From the sequence record NC_129898.1: a stretch of 64,000 nt of DNA; one strand, 5' to 3'. The notes beneath the pieces were generated by a model. It worked only from the letters and a program-made list of their open reading frames with translations, made no database searches and was not told the DNA's origin. This document shows, piece after piece, positions 49,117 through 62,459 of the stretch (the stretch's first letter is position 1; every line of letters begins with the position of its first letter). The translations under genes and the position numbers were made by a program. This stretch comes from a phage.

Positions 49117-49454
49117 CAGAGATCATCATTTCAACTGCAGGGTATGTATTCCTGACAATCATTGCGCTGATCATCTTGGTGGTGGTGTATGGATTTGTTA
49201 TCCTGCCTATTCTTGAGACATTTAGTTTGTGTCGGTGTTGGAGAAAGGCTTACGGACCACAGCCGTGGAAAGACTGGCCTCATCTGTTACGCATAGCGTT
49301 CTCCTATGCCTATGATCACTCCAGCAGTGCATGCATAACTGGGTACCACGCCCACAATTGGAACTGGGAAGGGTTGGGGAGATGGAATGTTACAAAGACT
49401 ATACCTCTACGCATGTACAAAGGAAAAGGTGGGATTGATGGGAATACCTGTTAA
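49113..49454 (+). CDS. membrane protein
   Basis: 113 aa with N-terminal transmembrane-like segment YVFLTIIALIILVVVYGFVILPIL. Confidence 0.45.
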   Translation: MTEIIISTAGYVFLTIIALIILVVVYGFVILPILETFSLCRCWRKAYGPQPWKDWPHLLRIAFSYAYDHSSSACITGYHAHNWNWEGLGRWNVTKTIPLRMYKGKGGIDGNTC

Positions 49455-50082
49455 AGACAGAAAAGTATGTGGTCGTGGAGTAAACGATTTAAAAGACAAA
49501 GTCCCAATGTACCAATCTGTTAATGGTAAGAGAGTACCAGAACCCCACTATGCTACATGGAAAGCATTATTCCAGAGGTGCTACGGCGATAACTCAAAGT
49601 ACCATACAGGTTGTGAAGTTGTAGAAGATTGGTGGTTGTTCTCAGAATTCTGGAAATGGATGGATACACAAGAGTGGAAAAGAGACGCTAAGAAGTTCAC
49701 TCTTGACAAAGATCTGAAAATCCCTGGAAACAGAATATACTCCCCAGAAACATGCATGTTTGTTCCACCACAAATAAACACCCTATTTGGCATAAGACAG
49801 GCAGCACGAGGGGATTTACCTTTGGGTGTGACACTTAGAAAAGATGTAAACAAGTATCTCGTGCATTGTCATCGAGATGGAAAAATTGTTCATGGCGGTC
49901 ATTTCGATGATCCACAGACAGCACACAAGGTGTGGCAAGAAATGAAACTTGAGGAGATGAAACTTCAGGCTATTAAAAACAAAGATGAGATTTGGCTGTT
50001 CGCCATTAAACGTGCAATAACTATCCTTGAGAATGATTTGAAAAATAATAAGGAGACTATAACATTGGTGAAATTTATTTAA
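49438..50082 (+). CDS. AP2-domain protein, putative HNH-AP2 homing endonuclease
   Basis: ATG 49438; C-terminal GVTLRKDVNKYLVHCHRDGKIVHGGHFDDPQTAHKVW resembles the AP2 DNA-binding domain; N-terminal W..F..RCY...GC.V...W.FSEFWKWM motif. Confidence 0.5.
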   Translation: MGIPVKDRKVCGRGVNDLKDKVPMYQSVNGKRVPEPHYATWKALFQRCYGDNSKYHTGCEVVEDWWLFSEFWKWMDTQEWKRDAKKFTLDKDLKIPGNRIYSPETCMFVPPQINTLFGIRQAARGDLPLGVTLRKDVNKYLVHCHRDGKIVHGGHFDDPQTAHKVWQEMKLEEMKLQAIKNKDEIWLFAIKRAITILENDLKNNKETITLVKFI

Positions 50083-50411
50083 GATATTTATGGTAGTATT
50101 TATTTTAAAATTATAAAAATTTTAGGCGATGAGGGAAAATATGTAATGGATTTTCCCTTATTTATCAGATATTTGCAGATATTTGGAAATCCTTAGAAAA
50201 TCAGAAAATGGATCGAAAACTAAAATGGATTTTTTCAAGACAGGCACGATAAGCTGCGCTGCTCATTCTATCGTTCGCACCGTACTTCAAATCACCATTC
50301 CAGATTTTCCGCACATACTCTCACCCCTCTGCCAGAACTTTCCCAACTTACCTTCAGCCTTTTATGACAATAAGTTAATTATTATCAGTAAGTTTTGATA
50401 CATCTCTCTCA

Positions 50412-50495
50412 GTACTCGATCTGTTTTTCATTTCAAAGATTGGATTTTCTGAAAATTTTTCTCGATAAATTTTTCGGTACTCGATCTGTTTTTCG
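50412..50495. repeat. 18-bp perfect direct repeat pair (gtactcgatctgtttttc) in an AT-rich non-coding block
   Basis: Copies at 50412-50429 and 50478-50495; further short repeats (aaatggatttt, ttttcgttttc) nearby. Confidence 0.85.
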
Positions 50496-50730
50496 TTTTC
50501 TGAATCGGATTTTCTTGAAATTGGTCCAGCACCAGATCTAAAATTTTTGGGAACGAAAGCGATTTTTCGTTTTCAGAAATGGATTTTTAAAATTTCTATA
50601 TGGGAATATTTTATGAGGTATTATTTTATATAGAATTGTCACGGTAGGTAATTAGCATGCTAACTAAATTTATGAAATGCGAAAAGTTCTCATTTAGAAT
50701 TTTGAATGATAATCATTCTCGTTTGCAGAA

Positions 50731-50906
50731 TAACGGGCACCCCCGGTGATTGTCTCCCGGCCCCTACTGCCCCGGCTTGTTATTATAGTATCACACAGGA
50801 CAAAGAAAGCAAGAAGTTTTTGCATAAATTTTTAGACGATAATGATAATCGTTCTCATTTCATGCAGCGCCCATCCCCGGTGGTTGTCTCCCCCGTCACC
50901 GGTGCC
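50731..50906. repeat. two direct copies of a roughly 45-70 bp dyad-containing repeat unit
   Basis: acgggcacccccggtgattgtctcccggcc at 50731 and cccatccccggtggttgtctcccccgtcaccggtgcc at 50870; inverted copy at 59118-59160. Confidence 0.85.
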
Positions 50907-51064
50907 TGCCGTCCTTTCGATATGTATATTGTGCCACCTGGCGGGGCCGCTGTCAACACTTTTCAAAAAAATTCTAACCTGATGCGCTAACCGTTGCAAC
51001 CTGGCGGGGCCAGCCTGGTGGGCCTATGCTATAGGATAGTAACAATTGAAGAGGAGGTACAAAA

Positions 51065-51181
51065 ATGGAAGGTAATATGATCCCCCTGGAAAATGTAGCT
51101 ATTAATGACGCTGAGGCTATCGCCCTGGTTGAAAAGGCTATGGCGGGAGCGTTGGAACATAAAGAAGAGTACGAAAAATGA
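51065..51181 (+). CDS. small hypothetical protein (38 aa)
   Basis: ATG after RBS GAGGAGG; below the track size cut-off. Confidence 0.35.
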   Translation: MEGNMIPLENVAINDAEAIALVEKAMAGALEHKEEYEK

Positions 51182-51243
51182 CGGTTAACCTGGCAGGGGC
51201 GGCGGCTGGGGAATTTTGCCCAAAAAATAATTTTAACTAGTGG

Positions 51244-51272
51244 TTGACAGCTCGGACAGTTTTTGTTATTCT
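51244..51272 (+). promoter_or_regulatory. sigma70-like promoter (TTGACA-17-TATTCT)
   Basis: Consensus -35 with 17-nt spacer. Confidence 0.5.
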
Positions 51273-51325
51273 TATCCTCGCAAGGTGAACAACACCACAC
51301 TAATTAACAGAGAGGATAAAAAATC

Positions 51326-51523
51326 ATGAACGCCTACGGAATCAAAGTACGTCGCAGCACTCGCCAGGTGGTCACCGATCAAATGATTTGCCAGGTGGAT
51401 GTGACCATCAACAACGGGCAAGGCCTTTATAAATTCCGTCGCGGTCAGAGCTATACCCGGCAACAGCTTAATCGTTGCGCCCTGACAAAAGGCCAGATCA
51501 ACCACTGGTTTAATAAAAAATAA
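51326..51523 (+). CDS. hypothetical small basic protein
   Basis: 65 aa after RBS GAGAGGA. Confidence 0.5.
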   Translation: MNAYGIKVRRSTRQVVTDQMICQVDVTINNGQGLYKFRRGQSYTRQQLNRCALTKGQINHWFNKK

Positions 51524-59062: not shown

Positions 59063-59117
59063 GATAATAAACAGGGCTTGAAATGGTCCTGTTTTTTGTT
59101 ATACTTATCTCACGGGT

Positions 59118-59160
59118 GGCACCTGGCGACGGGGGGAGACAATCACCGGGGGTGCCCGTT
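59118..59160. repeat. inverted copy of the 50731/50870 dyad repeat unit
   Basis: gggagacaatcaccgggggtgcccgtt is the exact reverse complement of 27 nt at 50731-50757; the extended match resembles the 50870 copy. Confidence 0.85.
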
Positions 59161-59910: not shown

Positions 59911-60510
59911 CTTTTCCTACCATAAACGGCCCCGCCTGGCAAGTGGAATAATTAACGAGCCATCAATCCCGCACACTGTACAAATATACATGTAAAATAG
60001 TTATTGCATAACCTTTCATTGTGTGGTAGCGGTGCTATTTTTACCTGTTTTCTCTCCCAAAATTGCACGTAATGCAGCTATTGCACAAAATTTAACCTGA
60101 TGCACATCTTCAGTATACTGTCAACAATTAAAAACCCTTATAAGTCATACACTTACACAAACCAAAAAGCGCGTCCTACGTGAAAAATCGGGTGTAACTA
60201 TAGCCGACAGATCTCAGAATCCACGTACGATCACCATTCTATAGCCTGCAAAGTATTTATTCCAACCACAGAATAACGGAATAGTCAATACCTGTACAAA
60301 ATAATTATTCGTACAAACTGCATAACATAAACCTGCCCAGGTGTCAACATTTTTCGTAAACAGTTAGAAATTGTCACGATAGGTTACTATAATCAGAGAA
60401 ATATTTAGTCGTCTAATGTTTACTGTACATAACTATACTGACTGGAATCATTAGATGACTAAGAGAAAGATAAGAAATAGTTAACAATGTAATTGTTTTA
60501 CCTGTAACAA

Positions 60511-60707
60511 TAAGGCAACTATGCAAACGAATGGCATGGCGCGACGGAGTCGCGACATAATATAAAAGCAGTAACAATCACCCCCGTGATAGTTTGTCTG
60601 CAATCTATTAATCAGATCATAGTTGCCTTGTATTTAGTTAATCATGACATAACAAGCAAGGCAACTATAGATCTTCTAATAGTTGCCCTGCTTTTATATT
60701 ATGTCAT
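60511..60707. repeat. nested inverted repeats (18-bp gacataatataaaagcag pair; 12-bp atagttgccttg pair) in the non-coding region
   Basis: Perfect 18-bp inverted repeat at 60555-60572 and 60690-60707 encloses a 12-bp inverted repeat pair (60620 and 60656); related copies at 60513 and 60678. Confidence 0.8.
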
Positions 60708-60761
60708 AGAAACGCCCGAAGGGGTGACCTAGTCACCTGGCATAGCCAGCGAAATATTATT

Positions 60762-60824
60762 AACTTGTTAATTGTCAGCTTGTTGGCTGTTAGCTTGTCA
60801 ATTGTTAACTTGCTAATTGTTAAA
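60762..60824. repeat. four tandem copies of a 15-bp unit (agcttgtYaattgtt)
   Basis: acttgttaattgtc agcttgttggctgtt agcttgtcaattgtt aacttgctaattgtt read directly. Confidence 0.8.
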
Positions 60825-62459
60825 CTCGGGAGCATAGCCCTCGTCTCAAGGGTGTTATCATGCAAACGAATGTCATGGCTTATCATCTATGCGTAAACTG
60901 TCAGGGTGTAGACTATTCAGGCGTAAACAGTCTATGCGGGAACAATCTATACGTGAACAGTGAAATATGAAATAATAACAGTCGTTATTGTATCGAAAGT
61001 GTATAAGGTGTCAGATTATGGCATATTGTGTGACATTGTGTCAGACAAGTTTTTCTCCTCTTTGTCAAGTGCTGCATGGAAAATTTACAATCTGGTATGG
61101 TAGCATTTTTGCGGCCCTGTTTACATTCAGGAGTGTATGTATAACCCTTGTTGTGTGGGCGTTTAGACGTCTGGACGGTCAGAAGTCTGCAGGTTAATAT
61201 CTAATCTATTGGTCGCTAACTATATCCCCCACAAATAATAAGAAATGCAATTGTTATATGCGTAAACAGTAACTCATGTTATCAATCCCTGTATGTATCG
61301 CCAGTGGTGCGCATAATGGGTATTATGTTAAATTGCCCGTAATGATAACAGTTCTCACAATGATAGGTATTCTCATTCACCCCCACAAAATAGATTGCAA
61401 ATGTTGTGCCACTGTGTGAACGGCCTCGCCTATTAATTTGCCTCACTGCTCCGATATTTGAGAATTGTTATAAGAATGAGAAGTATTCCCATTTCGTCCG
61501 CCTGGCAGCGCTCCTGTAGGTCAGGTCAAAATCGTGGTAGAACTGGACCCCTTCAGATATTTCTAGCTGACTCTTCAGGCCTGTGTGGGAAAAGCCAACC
61601 TCTCCGGCGGGGCAGGGGGGTCAATTAAAAAATTTACGTAGGGTACGAAGCGCTCTTCAGGTAAGGCATGTATTAGAGGATGAAACCCTCTTCAGGTGAT
61701 GATATTTGTGGGTGTGATATTTGCTGGAAAGCCAGATATGACGGGACTACCGGCGGGGATGGGGTAGTATAGGCAGGGAAAATGTGGAGAATGTGGTTGG
61801 TAAATTTATCAGGCAGGTAGAGTATGGGATATGTTACAGGTATGTTAAATATGGAGGTAGGATATTTGTAAGATTTGTGTGTAAAATCAAAGACTTAAGT
61901 GGTGTTGTGGTATTTTCTATAAATAATTCAAGTTTAATAGGTAATATTTGTCTCTATCCACTTTGTGGGGTAAACAGATTCTAATTGAATTGGTTTACAA
62001 GTGTATATAAAGTATACAAATTAAAGATATAAGAAACCCCCCTCCCCCTTCGGCTACCATTCACCTTTTCCTCTGACTGGTACTTAAACACTTATTCAGA
62101 CTCTTCAGGTTATCACCCATATACTATATGGCAGTGACTGGTGTCCTCTGGCCCCTCTTTCGTCACCCGTCCGCTTCGCCATGCTAATGCCATAGCTAAA
62201 GGTTCGGTTGTTCACCCTGTTCACTCAGGTGTATCTCCATACCCCTTCAAACCGAAGAGAACAGAAAACCCGAATTACTCGGTAAAAGAAAAGAGAAGAA
62301 CTTAATTTTATCAGGATAGGCAAGAATGTCAAGGCATGACTGCTCACTAAACAAGCAAACAGTCATGTGTGGGAGGTAAGTGATTGTGGTGGTAGGAAAT
62401 TTAGTTGAAAGATGTGTTATAGGTGCTTCCAGCACTTTAGCCGGGCAGCTAATTGTGTG

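Follow-up and report, generated by a model that had tools for sequence, protein, structure and literature searches.

In the stretch of rV5-like coliphage (Vequintavirus) DNA analyzed here (64,000 nucleotides, hereafter the window), positions 50178-51064 are a conserved non-coding control region of about 0.9 kb that is found in rV5-like phages. An earlier sequence-only reading had singled out a block at 50083-50700, now found to be the upstream two-thirds of this region, and had proposed that it holds a replication origin or a cluster of regulator binding sites. A cis-acting protein-binding array organized around three iterons is well supported by our sequence comparisons, because no conserved gene was found and the repeats are kept in relatives; sequence analysis does not separate an origin from regulator sites. 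We tentatively propose that the region is a composite, transcription-coupled replication origin, a reading that we place somewhat below even chances. Neither an origin nor an early regulatory switch is yet known for rV5-like phages, which are used in biocontrol and therapy. The array appears to be new for this phage group, as the literature searched describes neither these iterons nor Fur boxes in rV5-, PVP-SE1- or phi92-like phages. It provides a delimited, testable cis element with a fixed three-iteron geometry across genera in which the neighbouring proteins are unrelated, and an origin at this position would enable replicon mapping and engineering of rV5-like phages.

The flagged block was found to be AT-rich and free of genes, as had been claimed, with 68.3% AT compared to 56.2% for the window. 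The non-coding stretch continues to position 51064 and comprises about 980 bp (50083-51064). A conserved gene, which had been named as evidence against the earlier proposal, was not found within it. The ORFs annotated by relatives within 50083-51064 are disrupted by 1-2-nt indels, and the annotation varies by record, with GenBank records in conflict on both strand and extent. In an alignment of 10 close relatives both candidate ORFs (50183-50398 and 50706-50990) were found to contain frameshifting indels (+1, -1, and -2 nt) as well as a poly(A) tract that varies in length; their coding potential was dismissed on account of the frameshifts. ORF 50183-50398 (FV3_00183-like), which had no match in PHROG or Pfam, is mostly covered by a variable spacer at 50238-50400, the least conserved segment of the region and one that bears 1-2-nt indels, and is therefore not a conserved gene. 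The 94-aa ORF 50706-50990 matches phrog_14993, a family that probably rests on such ORF annotations in rV5-like genomes. The view that the block encodes protein (FV3_00183- and FV3_00182-like ORFs), or that its repeats are neutral duplications, draws on this match and on the GenBank records that annotate ORFs here. Against it stand the frameshifts and the variable poly(A) inside both ORFs, the disagreement between records, and a layout that is kept across genera where the flanking proteins are not, and we give it next to no credence.

One Klebsiella phage record labels the box region as tRNA-Met; this was rejected, as ARAGORN found no tRNA there or in the window. Rfam gave no match at E <= 1 for the window segment and four related loci. 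The sequence GATC (the Dam site), a component of the iteron core, occurs 315 times window-wide compared to 240 expected, and its enrichment was dismissed since there is no local excess. The region did not resemble plasmid origins, the only match (CP057073) being an rV5-like genome deposited as a plasmid. At its downstream end (50957-51064, plus strand), 5' of the first small gene (ATG at 51065), it contains a poly(A) tract of varying length and CCTGGCGGGGCC repeats, and relatives carry a 45-50-bp insertion within the equivalent segment.

The three iterons are co-oriented on the plus strand. Their 40-bp cores lie at 50409-50448 (TCAGTACTCGATCTGTTTTTCATTTCAAAGATTGGATTTT), 50474-50513 (TCGGTACTCGATCTGTTTTTCGTTTTCTGAATCGGATTTT), and 50548-50587 (TGGGAACGAAAGCGATTTTTCGTTTTCAGAAATGGATTTT, with a degenerate left box), and the consensus over about 40 bp is GGnTCTCGATC-TTTTC-TTC-ATCGnATTT. 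The 18-bp perfect direct repeat GTACTCGATCTGTTTTTC noted before is real and was located at 50412-50429 and 50477-50494, one base away from the 50478 first given for the second copy. It is part of a three-copy family of about 47 nt (50402, 50467, and 50541) with 74-77% identity and spacings of 65 and 74 bp; by simple arithmetic, the chance expectation for an 18-mer repeat within 100 bp is about 1e-4. The shorter units described before were also recovered, the ttttcgttttc(t/a)gaa type as TTTTTCGTTTTCWGAA at 50489 and 50563, and the aaatggatttt type as AATGGATTTT at 50145, 50224, and 50578. GGATTTT-type boxes sit left of the iterons; GGATTTT occurs 17 times in the 64 kb, five of them within 450 bp here and all five on the plus strand. 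Alignment and repeat lists further identified an upstream short-repeat block at 50166-50237 (plus strand), composed of two tandem copies of CAGATATTTG followed by AGAAAATCAGAAAATGGATCGAAAACTAAAATGGATTTTTTCA, which is almost invariant in 10 Vequintavirus genomes. Judged by eye and from repeat lists, this block resembles the short-period (11-12 bp) GATTT-type arrays located 5' of the iterons in CR3, POP18, and ChuuTotoro. A promoter-like TTGAAA-18-TAAAAT at 50515-50544 (iteron 2) was set aside, as relatives do not conserve it. When the sequence collection was scanned for TCTCGATCG cores in pairs, most matches were attributable to chance, and many came from GC-rich bacterial genomes.

The earlier reading had also held that absence of the repeats from close relatives would speak against it. 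The repeats were found in these relatives, and their architecture extends to all Vequintavirinae lineages sampled. The three-iteron layout recurs with a spacing of 52-78 bp, the individual values being 65/74 bp in this phage, 74/67 in Mydovirus, 76/67 in GAP31, 78/63 in CR3, 76/52 in POP18, and 66/65 in ChuuTotoro. The distance from the first iteron core to the second of the Fur-like boxes described below (box 2) was 286-296 bp in five loci, and that between box 2 and the third iteron fell into two classes of 113-116 and 143-155 bp, about 31 bp apart. The flanking proteins are not conserved between genera, whereas the adjacent DNA segment with box and hairpin is 80-88% identical. A small leftward gene of the GAP31 and phi92-like loci has no homologue in the window. 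Two phi92-like contigs were examined, of which L020 has a different repeat sequence at a spacing of 77/67 bp and L004 a spacing of 48/90. Since a phi92-like coliphage contig has three copies at like spacing but of another repeat sequence, the iteron binder is probably phage-encoded.

The different repeat at the same position in the phi92-like contig also argues against a shared host factor, and so bears on whether H-NS or Fis nucleates on curved AT-rich DNA here with no dedicated phage binder. An exact TCGATAAATT is present at 50462-50471, in a segment nearly invariant among the aligned Vequintavirus genomes, and the iteron cores start with TCGAT. We take this motif to be the H-NS high-affinity consensus (Lang et al. 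2007). It was spotted post hoc, and nucleation of this kind appears highly unlikely to us.

Each repeat unit could alternatively act as a weak terminator, the tandem units together forming an insulator in which plus-strand hairpins with U-tracts stop transcripts of the upstream operon before they reach the regulated promoters. Read from the sequences, units 1 and 2 of GAP31 and Mydovirus can form AU-rich hairpins followed by UAUUUUUU, and a scan marked 50543-50580 of the window as terminator-like. The stems are, however, AU-rich, with three G-C pairs out of 17 in the window, and units 1 and 2 of this phage lack a convincing hairpin. Moreover, it is primary sequence that is conserved, with CTCGATC identical in nearly all iteron units, and not a covarying stem. 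We consider an insulator of this type very unlikely.

To the right, the iterons adjoin an AT-rich spacer (50583-50650, 78% AT) that is a candidate unwinding element. The 100-bp segment starting at 50578 was found to rank second lowest in duplex stability across the 64 kb, with -110 kcal/mol compared to a mean of -133.8 (sd 5.6). Of the six 100-bp segments with the lowest stability in the 64 kb, four fall in 50022-50677, and the lowest of all lies in the homing-endonuclease gene (HEG) insertion. Equivalent regions are among the least stable in the Mydovirus and phi92-like loci, while the signal is weaker in other genera; the AT-rich spacer itself is less pronounced in Seunavirus and Mydovirus. 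The perfect 12-bp palindrome TTAGCATGCTAA, to which the earlier proposal had in part appealed, is present at 50652-50663 (start 50652, not 50653) but is statistically unremarkable, since the window contains 19 perfect 12-bp palindromes compared to 14.4 ± 3.6 in Markov simulations. By alignment the palindrome is intact in seven of 10 Vequintavirus genomes and broken by an uncompensated A>G in the other three, and it grows to 18-20 bp in some relatives. It has no statistical weight on its own and adds none to the case for an origin or a regulator-site cluster.

The most informative elements, namely Fur-type boxes, a hairpin, and convergent promoters, are located at or just past the right boundary of the block as first drawn. 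The plus-strand hairpin at 50741-50761 contains the 18-mer CCCCGGTGATTGTCTCCC, and its stem covaries across genera, G-U pairs included; a second copy of the hairpin module (CCCCGGTGGTTGTCTCCC...CACCGG) lies at 50875-50905, also on the plus strand. On the minus strand, a leftward sigma70-like promoter TTGCTT-16-TACTAT (50785-50812) is predicted to read toward the iterons, crossing hairpin, boxes, and AT-rich spacer, and a second one, TTGACA-17-CACAAT with a TG, is located at 50928-50956. A leftward promoter of the form TTGnnn-16/17-TAnnnT was found in 18 of the 19 module copies, covering all genera sampled, with a variable spacer sequence. Each rightward promoter candidate is accompanied by a facing leftward promoter and a plus-strand hairpin, and this unit is present in two copies, at a distance of 134-144 bp that varies with the element compared. 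Sigma70-like matches are dense in the small-gene module (34 compared to 19.8 expected). A G-quadruplex/R-loop reading of the G-rich leftward transcript was dropped because the G-runs, read from the sequences, are not conserved in other genera.

Fur-like box 1 (AATGCGAAAAGTTCTCATT, 50676-50694) is degenerate and lies 29 bp from box 2 (AATGATAATCATTCTCGTT, 50705-50723), which falls inside the segment with 80-88% nucleotide identity in other genera. Box 2 overlaps a candidate rightward GATAAT (50708-50713) or sits in the spacer of TTGAAT-18-CAGAAT (50702-50731). Box 3 (50841-50859) overlaps the predicted GATAAT of a plus-strand rightward promoter candidate, TTGCAT-18-GATAAT (50820-50849), the two together spanning 50820-50859. 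Compared to the 19-bp Fur consensus GATAATGATAATCATTATC, 50838-50856 (box 3) matches at 17 of 19 positions, where 0.01 matches are expected by chance at <=3 mismatches, and 50702-50720 matches at 15. Boxes 2 and 3 each fit the 7-1-7 form at 12/14, and nine Fur-like 19-mers are present in the window compared to 0.7 expected. Direct comparison found positions 50709-50724 at box 2 (ATAATCATTCTCGTTT) to be identical over 16 consecutive nt to the E. coli K-12 fhuA promoter, a stretch that is presumably the reported Fur box of that promoter.

Judged by the consensus and the fhuA match, the phage boxes appear to be Fur operator-type sites, and their overlap with predicted -10 hexamers is a further likeness to the Fur boxes of iron-uptake promoters such as fhuA of E. 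coli. Unlike the latter, they occur in a virulent phage and in arrays of one to four at 28-29 bp (38 bp in one CR3 interval). Extra boxes, where present, occupy the spacer and do not lengthen it. The phage boxes also prefer GAGAAT/ATTCTC over GATAAT/ATTATC, so a different binder with similar specificity is possible. A bolder reading is an iron-gated hub shared by two virulent Enterobacterales phage subfamilies. Host Fur-Fe2+ bound to genuine Fur operator arrays would control the early promoters that fire rightward and also the leftward transcription by which an iteron-organized origin is activated. The iron status of the host would then adjust early phage expression or replication; alternatively, phage DNA would sequester Fur as it amplifies, and iron uptake by the host would be derepressed. 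We regard such a hub as unlikely. The box matches do give a concrete lead toward Fur-type operators over the early promoters of a strictly lytic phage family, and were the Fur reading correct, the outcome of infection would be tied to gut iron availability.

In the transcription-coupled origin that we propose, the co-oriented GGATTTT-type boxes and the three iterons of about 40 bp would bind a sequence-specific protein. The array adjoins DNA that melts more readily than any other conserved segment of the window, and one or two conserved leftward sigma70-type promoters, located 130-300 bp further right, would transcribe toward that DNA. This transcription could supply activation or a primer for the T7-like primase-helicase and the PolA-type polymerase. 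Fur-box-type palindromes are interposed between the leftward promoters and the AT-rich DNA and overlap the predicted rightward promoters of the small-gene module. Because the boxes lie over or between promoters, an occupied box would be expected to repress rightward initiation and could block leftward transcription as well. The sequences directly show the repeats with their conservation and geometry, the lack of coding function, the low duplex stability, the matches to promoters and Fur boxes, and the covarying hairpin; from these we infer that a protein binds, what kind of protein it is, that Fur occupies the boxes, and that replication starts here.

Support for the proposed origin comes from the non-random iterons, the low-stability DNA, and the conserved promoters firing toward the iterons. 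As expected of an iteron-type origin, three direct repeats are found in one orientation (50409, 50474, and 50548), next to a candidate AT-rich unwinding element (100 bp from 50578). The layout resembles that of pSC101- and RK2-type origins in its short-period repeats, its iterons, and the palindromic operator-like sites that overlie a promoter. The likeness to iteron origins in general (lambda ori; pSC101, RK2, and P1 oriR) includes co-oriented repeats beside easily melted AT-rich DNA, flanked to one side by repeats of short period and to the other by sites like palindromic operators over a promoter, a repeat sequence that drifts between lineages while number and spacing are kept, and a promoter that fires toward the repeats. 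The primary origin of T7, with phi1.1A/B and an AT-rich stretch, also offers a parallel, as two predicted tandem leftward promoters face the AT-rich 50583-50650 (up to three in GAP31, by eye). A gp4-like primase-helicase is encoded as well (35595-37673 matches phrog_239, primase/helicase), together with a Dda-like helicase, and a PolA-type polymerase is encoded according to the rV5 paper (PMC3606486). The parallel ends with the promoters, which are here of the host sigma70 type because the phage lacks its own RNA polymerase, and with the iterons and Fur-type boxes, which have no counterpart in T7.

Other observations fit the proposed origin less well. The repeat units of classical iteron origins are 17-22 bp long and either contiguous or about two helical turns apart, whereas those found here measure about 40 bp and are spaced at 52-78 bp. 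Consensus sites for DnaA (TTWTNCACA) or IHF (WATCAANNNNTTR) were not found in 50.08-51.06 kb. Searches of PHROG and Pfam with the neighbouring small ORFs and the replication module identified no Rep-, O- or DnaA-like protein and gave only families of unknown function or non-initiator families, and unlike in lambda ori and the plasmids the repeats do not appear to lie in or beside an initiator gene. The third-position GC skew of co-oriented genes changes from +0.04 (23-49 kb) to -0.09 (51-60 kb; p = 0.006), which is a polarity opposite to that of a classical bidirectional origin, in a weak signal with left-arm variation nearly as large. The rV5 authors found no origin by skew analysis, and their genome paper lists no promoter or terminator in the equivalent stretch (PMC3606486). 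The repeat-rich non-coding DNA at 59.9-62.4 kb is a competing origin candidate, where a contiguous 15-bp x 4.5 array occurs in DNA of low stability that also has one DnaA box and an IHF site.

Much of the same evidence would suit a transcriptional switch with no role in replication. The iterons and GGATTTT boxes would then be operator or enhancer sites of a phage regulator, about 115-290 bp upstream, which, possibly held in helical phase, bends or loops the DNA to turn the convergent promoters on or off (the Fur-box-overlapped rightward P1/P2 against the leftward antisense promoters) and so times the small-gene module. The array lies directly upstream of the promoter candidates that lead into this module, and the duplicated unit of facing promoters and hairpin, like the extra Fur-like boxes that leave the spacer length unaltered, is compatible with such a switch. 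The gap of about 31 bp between the two classes of iteron-to-box-2 distance, corresponding to about three helical turns, would keep the helical phase and suits promoter regulation as well as it does an origin. A/T tracts such as GAAAAAATTTTT within the units of other genera suggest bending. The OR and OL regions of lambdoid phages have three operators each, with the spacing kept and the sequence diverged, and this pattern fits the three units found here. A likeness to the coliphage 186 pR/pL and phi29 p4/p6 switches is seen in the convergent predicted promoters less than 100 bp apart that share a hairpin, and in an A/T-tract array that could bend DNA; here, however, there is no lysogeny decision and the antisense RNA is putative. 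At least eight boxes in the same orientation over 450 bp are more than most promoter regulators use, and no regulator was identified. The flanks at 41-50 and 51-60 kb are both rich in sigma70-like promoters, and the region therefore marks no obvious temporal boundary. A switch would also leave the very low duplex stability unexplained. We regard it as a possible but doubtful alternative to the origin.

The region could also be read as a signal for DNA entry or packaging. It would then be an injection-stop or entry-pause region of the T5 type, situated about 10 kb away from an end of the genome, or else a pac-type terminase recognition site. Headful phages need a pac site, and Vequintavirus genomes have been reported as permuted or headful. 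We know of no two-step injection in this phage group. One Vequintavirus was called headful by PhageTerm (PMC13211470). In T5 the injection stop region is likewise large, untranslated, and rich in repeats; it shows higher conservation than the ORFs around it and is found about 8% from the genome end, and in some relatives an HNH endonuclease gene interrupts it (bioRxiv 10.1101/866236). Our region shares with it the large untranslated repeats, a conservation higher than that of the flanking ORFs, an HNH endonuclease gene at the edge in a subset of genomes, and maybe a position about 7-8% of the genome from the end. It differs in having no paired DnaA boxes, no 10-kb or other long terminal repeat, and no large inverted repeats. 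The Mydovirus KPP-1 has a 514-bp direct terminal repeat (PMC9862379), which lies between convergent genes and, as placed through a box match in the related KB57 and not by direct mapping, would be about 9-10 kb from the equivalent of our element. As the KPP-1 termini are elsewhere, the element is not the cleavage site there. Starts of GenBank records were enriched neither here nor at 60-62 kb, and we find a role in entry or packaging quite improbable.

At the left edge, the HNH homing-endonuclease gene (49387-50082, plus strand, 231 aa; phrog_953, E = 5.4e-65) is an insertion relative to FV3/rV5-type genomes, and its 3' flank (50083-50177, 95 bp) substitutes for about 80 bp of ancestral sequence. 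Left of 50178, only YP-6 and 241Ecol014PP align. The leftmost 95 bp of the flagged block are thus outside the conserved element; they arrived with the HNH insertion and are found only in these two genomes. They contain a terminator-like hairpin at 50133-50157 (plus strand), identified as an inverted repeat and by alignment, with the structure GGGAAAAT-N9-ATTTTCCC followed by a T-rich tail, and the loop holds the first AATGGATTTT box. In relatives without the homing endonuclease a comparable hairpin, GGAGGA...TCCTCC+TTTT, is present, and its loop likewise carries this box.

Nucleotides 49900-51400 matched 121 phage records, many of them Vequintavirus genomes, led by YP-6 at 96% and FV3 at 97% (the latter aligned from window position 50178 rightward), both Escherichia phages. 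These matches indicate that the window is part of an rV5-like virulent myovirus. Genes for rIIA/rIIB, a Dda-like helicase, DNA methyltransferases and a gp4-like primase-helicase were found upstream of the non-coding region, and a PolA-type polymerase is described for the rV5 group (PMC3606486). No tRNA was detected across the window. One rV5-like genome, CP057073.1 (PLSDB, 137,565 bp; E. coli isolate from cattle faeces), is filed as a non-mobilizable 'plasmid', which suggests a carrier state or culture contamination.

The sequence-only reading had described 50083-50700 as gene-free. The right limit of the gene-free region is an ATG at 51065, and its left edge carries a free-standing HNH homing endonuclease gene (49387-50082, phrog_953) only in the window, YP-6 and 241Ecol014PP. 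Since the alignment to other relatives begins only at 50178, 50083-50177 belongs to the HNH insertion. Duplex stability across the window reaches its minimum within this insertion (start 50074 for a 50-bp window, 50022 for a 100-bp window). The FV3 record annotates two ORFs in the region (FV3_00183 and FV3_00182), while other records have no ORF or differing ORFs on either strand. In a ten-genome alignment both ORFs contained a poly(A) tract of varying length as well as indels of +1, -1 and -2. A homology search gave no conserved gene: a 71-aa ORF had no match in PHROG or Pfam, and the sole match of a 94-aa ORF was phrog_14993, a function-unknown family that probably rests on such ORF annotations. 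A protein-coding reading was rejected because of the frameshifting indels in both ORFs and the inconsistent annotation among records. The region is thus non-coding, and the feature is genuine and has clear boundaries; that it is coding or neutral sequence is hardly credible.

The block is AT-rich (68% AT compared to 56% for the window), and the TTTTTCGTTTTCWGAA pair and AATGGATTTT boxes were found as previously described. The perfect 18-bp direct repeat was recovered at 50412-50429 and 50477-50494, as part of a three-copy family (50402, 50467 and 50541) with 74-77% identity over 47 nt and spacings of 65 and 74 bp. GGATTTT occurs 17 times in the 64 kb; five of these sites fall in a 450-bp stretch here, each on the plus strand. 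The perfect 12-bp palindrome is also present, starting at 50652, but is not exceptional (19 observed in the window versus 14.4 ± 3.6 expected) and is broken without compensation in three of ten relatives; it adds little as evidence. Between iterons 1 and 2, two of the three same-orientation cores of ~40 bp (50409, 50474 and 50548), an exact TCGATAAATT, which we take to be the H-NS high-affinity motif, is located at 50462-50471 in a segment near-invariant among the aligned Vequintavirus genomes.

In the Vequintavirus ten-genome alignment 50195-50237 was near-invariant, 50238-50400 was the most variable part, the iterons were conserved blockwise, and 50676-50960 was almost invariant with scattered substitutions only. 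The repeats are present in close relatives and the three-unit layout in other genera. Beyond the genus, a sensitive search gave nucleotide matches only at ~50666-50813, with 80-88% identity in Seunavirus, Mydovirus, Certrevirus, Pectobacterium and Serratia phages and ~70% in one phi92-like phage. The layout recurred in all related loci read, with three same-orientation units (consensus nnGGnTCTCGATCnnnTTTTCnnnTTCnnnATCGnATTT) followed by one to four palindromic boxes, mostly 28-29 bp apart, and then a GC-rich hairpin. Unit spacings were 74/67 bp in Mydovirus, 76/67 bp in GAP31, 78/63 bp in CR3, 76/52 bp in POP18 and 66/65 bp in ChuuTotoro, and the distance from the first core to the main palindromic box was 286-296 bp in five loci. 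Of two phi92-like contigs, L020 has a different repeat sequence spaced 77/67 bp, and L004 has a spacing of 48/90. CR3, POP18 and ChuuTotoro carry an additional upstream array of GATTT-type boxes with an 11-12-bp period, resembling window 50145-50237 by eye. No conservation of the flanking proteins on either side was detectable between the window and the other-genus loci. The conserved geometry, a repeat sequence that tracks lineage and the different repeats of two coliphage groups argue for units that would be bound by a phage-encoded sequence-specific protein. Nucleation of a nucleoid protein is considered very improbable.

Three Fur-like palindromes follow the iterons (box 1, 50676-50694; box 2, 50705-50723; box 3, 50841-50859). 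For box 3, 50838-50856 agrees with the Fur consensus GATAATGATAATCATTATC in 17 of 19 positions (0.01 matches expected per window at ≤3 mismatches). At box 2, 50709-50724 has a 16-nt identity with the E. coli K-12 fhuA promoter, in what is presumably the fhuA Fur box. Both have the 7-1-7 form, with 12/14 each. The window contains nine Fur-like 19-mers versus 0.7 expected, with clusters in this region and in the non-coding block at 61.3-61.5 kb. The exact box-2 sequence TGAATGATAATCATTCTC was also found in viral contigs unrelated to rV5 (L008, L012-L015, L022-L024, L027 and L032; IMG/VR), in several just upstream of an apparent gene start as read from the sequence, and in L032 as a tandem array with 44-bp spacing. 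This recurrence fits a host factor as binder, and many phage genomes may carry Fur-type operators. Since the phage boxes prefer GAGAAT/ATTCTC, the predicted binder could also be a different protein of Fur-like specificity. No description of Fur boxes in the rV5-like group was found in the literature searched.

Box 3 lies over the -10 of a predicted promoter, TTGCAT-18-GATAAT (50820-50849), and box 2 lies over GATAAT or fills the spacer of a predicted TTGAAT-18-CAGAAT. Each box is followed downstream by a hairpin with CCCCGGTGRTTGTCTCCC (50741-50761 in module copy 1, 50875-50905 in copy 2). The plus-strand hairpin was 87.5% paired across 12 diverse sequences compared to 72.9 ± 3.2 when shuffled (0/500), with double changes in four of six pairs and many G-U pairs; no equivalent fold was predicted for the minus strand. 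Because of this covariation and strand bias, the sequences support rightward transcription through the hairpin. That the region represents tandem terminators is quite unlikely. A predicted leftward sigma70-like promoter faces each hairpin (50785-50812 and 50928-50956), and 18 of the 19 module copies, drawn from every genus sampled, carry leftward TTGnnn-16/17-TAnnnT with variable spacer, which is the signature of a real promoter. The Vequintaviruses have no leftward protein gene at this site, and the leftward promoters therefore either make an RNA product or act through transcription itself, which would run toward the AT-rich spacer and iterons. A third copy of the module of sigma70 promoter and GC hairpin, without boxes (59078-59151), is oriented opposite to those at 50.7-50.9 kb, along the gene direction. 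Its predicted RNA would be complementary to the copy-1 18-mer (50741-50758) over 18/18 nt, and antisense pairing with the copy-1 hairpin in trans is possible.

The block had been proposed to be an origin or a cluster of regulator sites. We tentatively place a composite replication origin slightly ahead of pure transcriptional regulation. An origin is favored by the composite repeat arrays, the gp4-like primase-helicase and low duplex stability: of the six 100-bp windows with the lowest stability in the 64 kb, four lie in 50022-50677, with comparable minima in other genera. Tandem promoters facing AT-rich DNA, here predicted, are a likeness to the T7 primary origin, and the overall layout presumably resembles pSC101- and RK2-type origins. 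However, the units are long and widely spaced, scans for DnaA and IHF consensus sites found none in the region, and no initiator was identified. Among co-oriented plus-strand genes (23000-60000) the GC3 skew, although noisy, changed sign across the non-coding region, from +0.04 on its left to -0.09 on its right (p = 0.006), a polarity wrong for a bidirectional origin; the cause could be the polarity of replication, or the small-gene module could have a different origin. An array acting in transcriptional regulation only is possible, as it lies just upstream of the promoter cluster, has two distance classes ~31 bp apart, and the cassette of promoter, hairpin and antisense promoter is duplicated as one unit.

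Also against an origin here, a gene-poor block of 2.5 kb that separates convergent transcription units (59930-62400) competes as a candidate for either the origin or the genome ends. It contains a tandem array of 4.5 copies of a 15-bp unit (60756-60823), several other repeats and further Fur-like boxes at 61359 and 61475. A single DnaA box overlaps an IHF consensus at 61878-61897, and the DNA near 61.9 kb is of low stability. In Mydovirus KPP-1, a block with a similar position between convergent genes is reported to carry a direct terminal repeat of 514 bp. In rV5, skew analysis gave no origin, no promoter or terminator was listed in the equivalent stretch (about 116.5-117.6 kb), and one 'non-coding' box was marked (PMC3606486). 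Because of its skew coordinates (104.4-105.5 kb), this box probably corresponds to window 60-62 kb, and so to the 59930-62400 block, and not to the iteron region.

The T5 injection stop region, likewise untranslated, repeat-rich and conserved, offers the closest documented analogy; in some T5 relatives an HNH gene splits untranslated repeat regions, in parallel to the insertion at 49387-50082. However, the DnaA-box pairs that define it are absent from the window region, and a DNA-entry or packaging signal is regarded as unlikely. An iteron-plus-operator control region of Vequintavirinae was undescribed in the literature searched. As an iteron or operator array it is of a known kind; its geometry is unusual, and its link to Fur-type sites is unexpected.

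Some related loci of Seunavirus, Mydovirus and phi92-like phages (L006 1660-1810 and equivalents in L003, L004 and L005) contain an extra, highly conserved block of ~100 nt (…CTACCGGCGATCCACCTTCC…GCCGTGGGGTGGCG), with a leftward sigma70-like promoter of its own and a small leftward gene ahead of it. The block is not in the window, had no Rfam match and may be an undescribed structured RNA. In the Klebsiella phage OY978796.1, 10972-11044 (L003 1504-1576) is annotated as tRNA-Met/tRNA-Ile/tRNA-Lys over the region of the Fur-like box and hairpin; this was rejected, being without ARAGORN support, and the tRNA feature coordinates are probably shifted.
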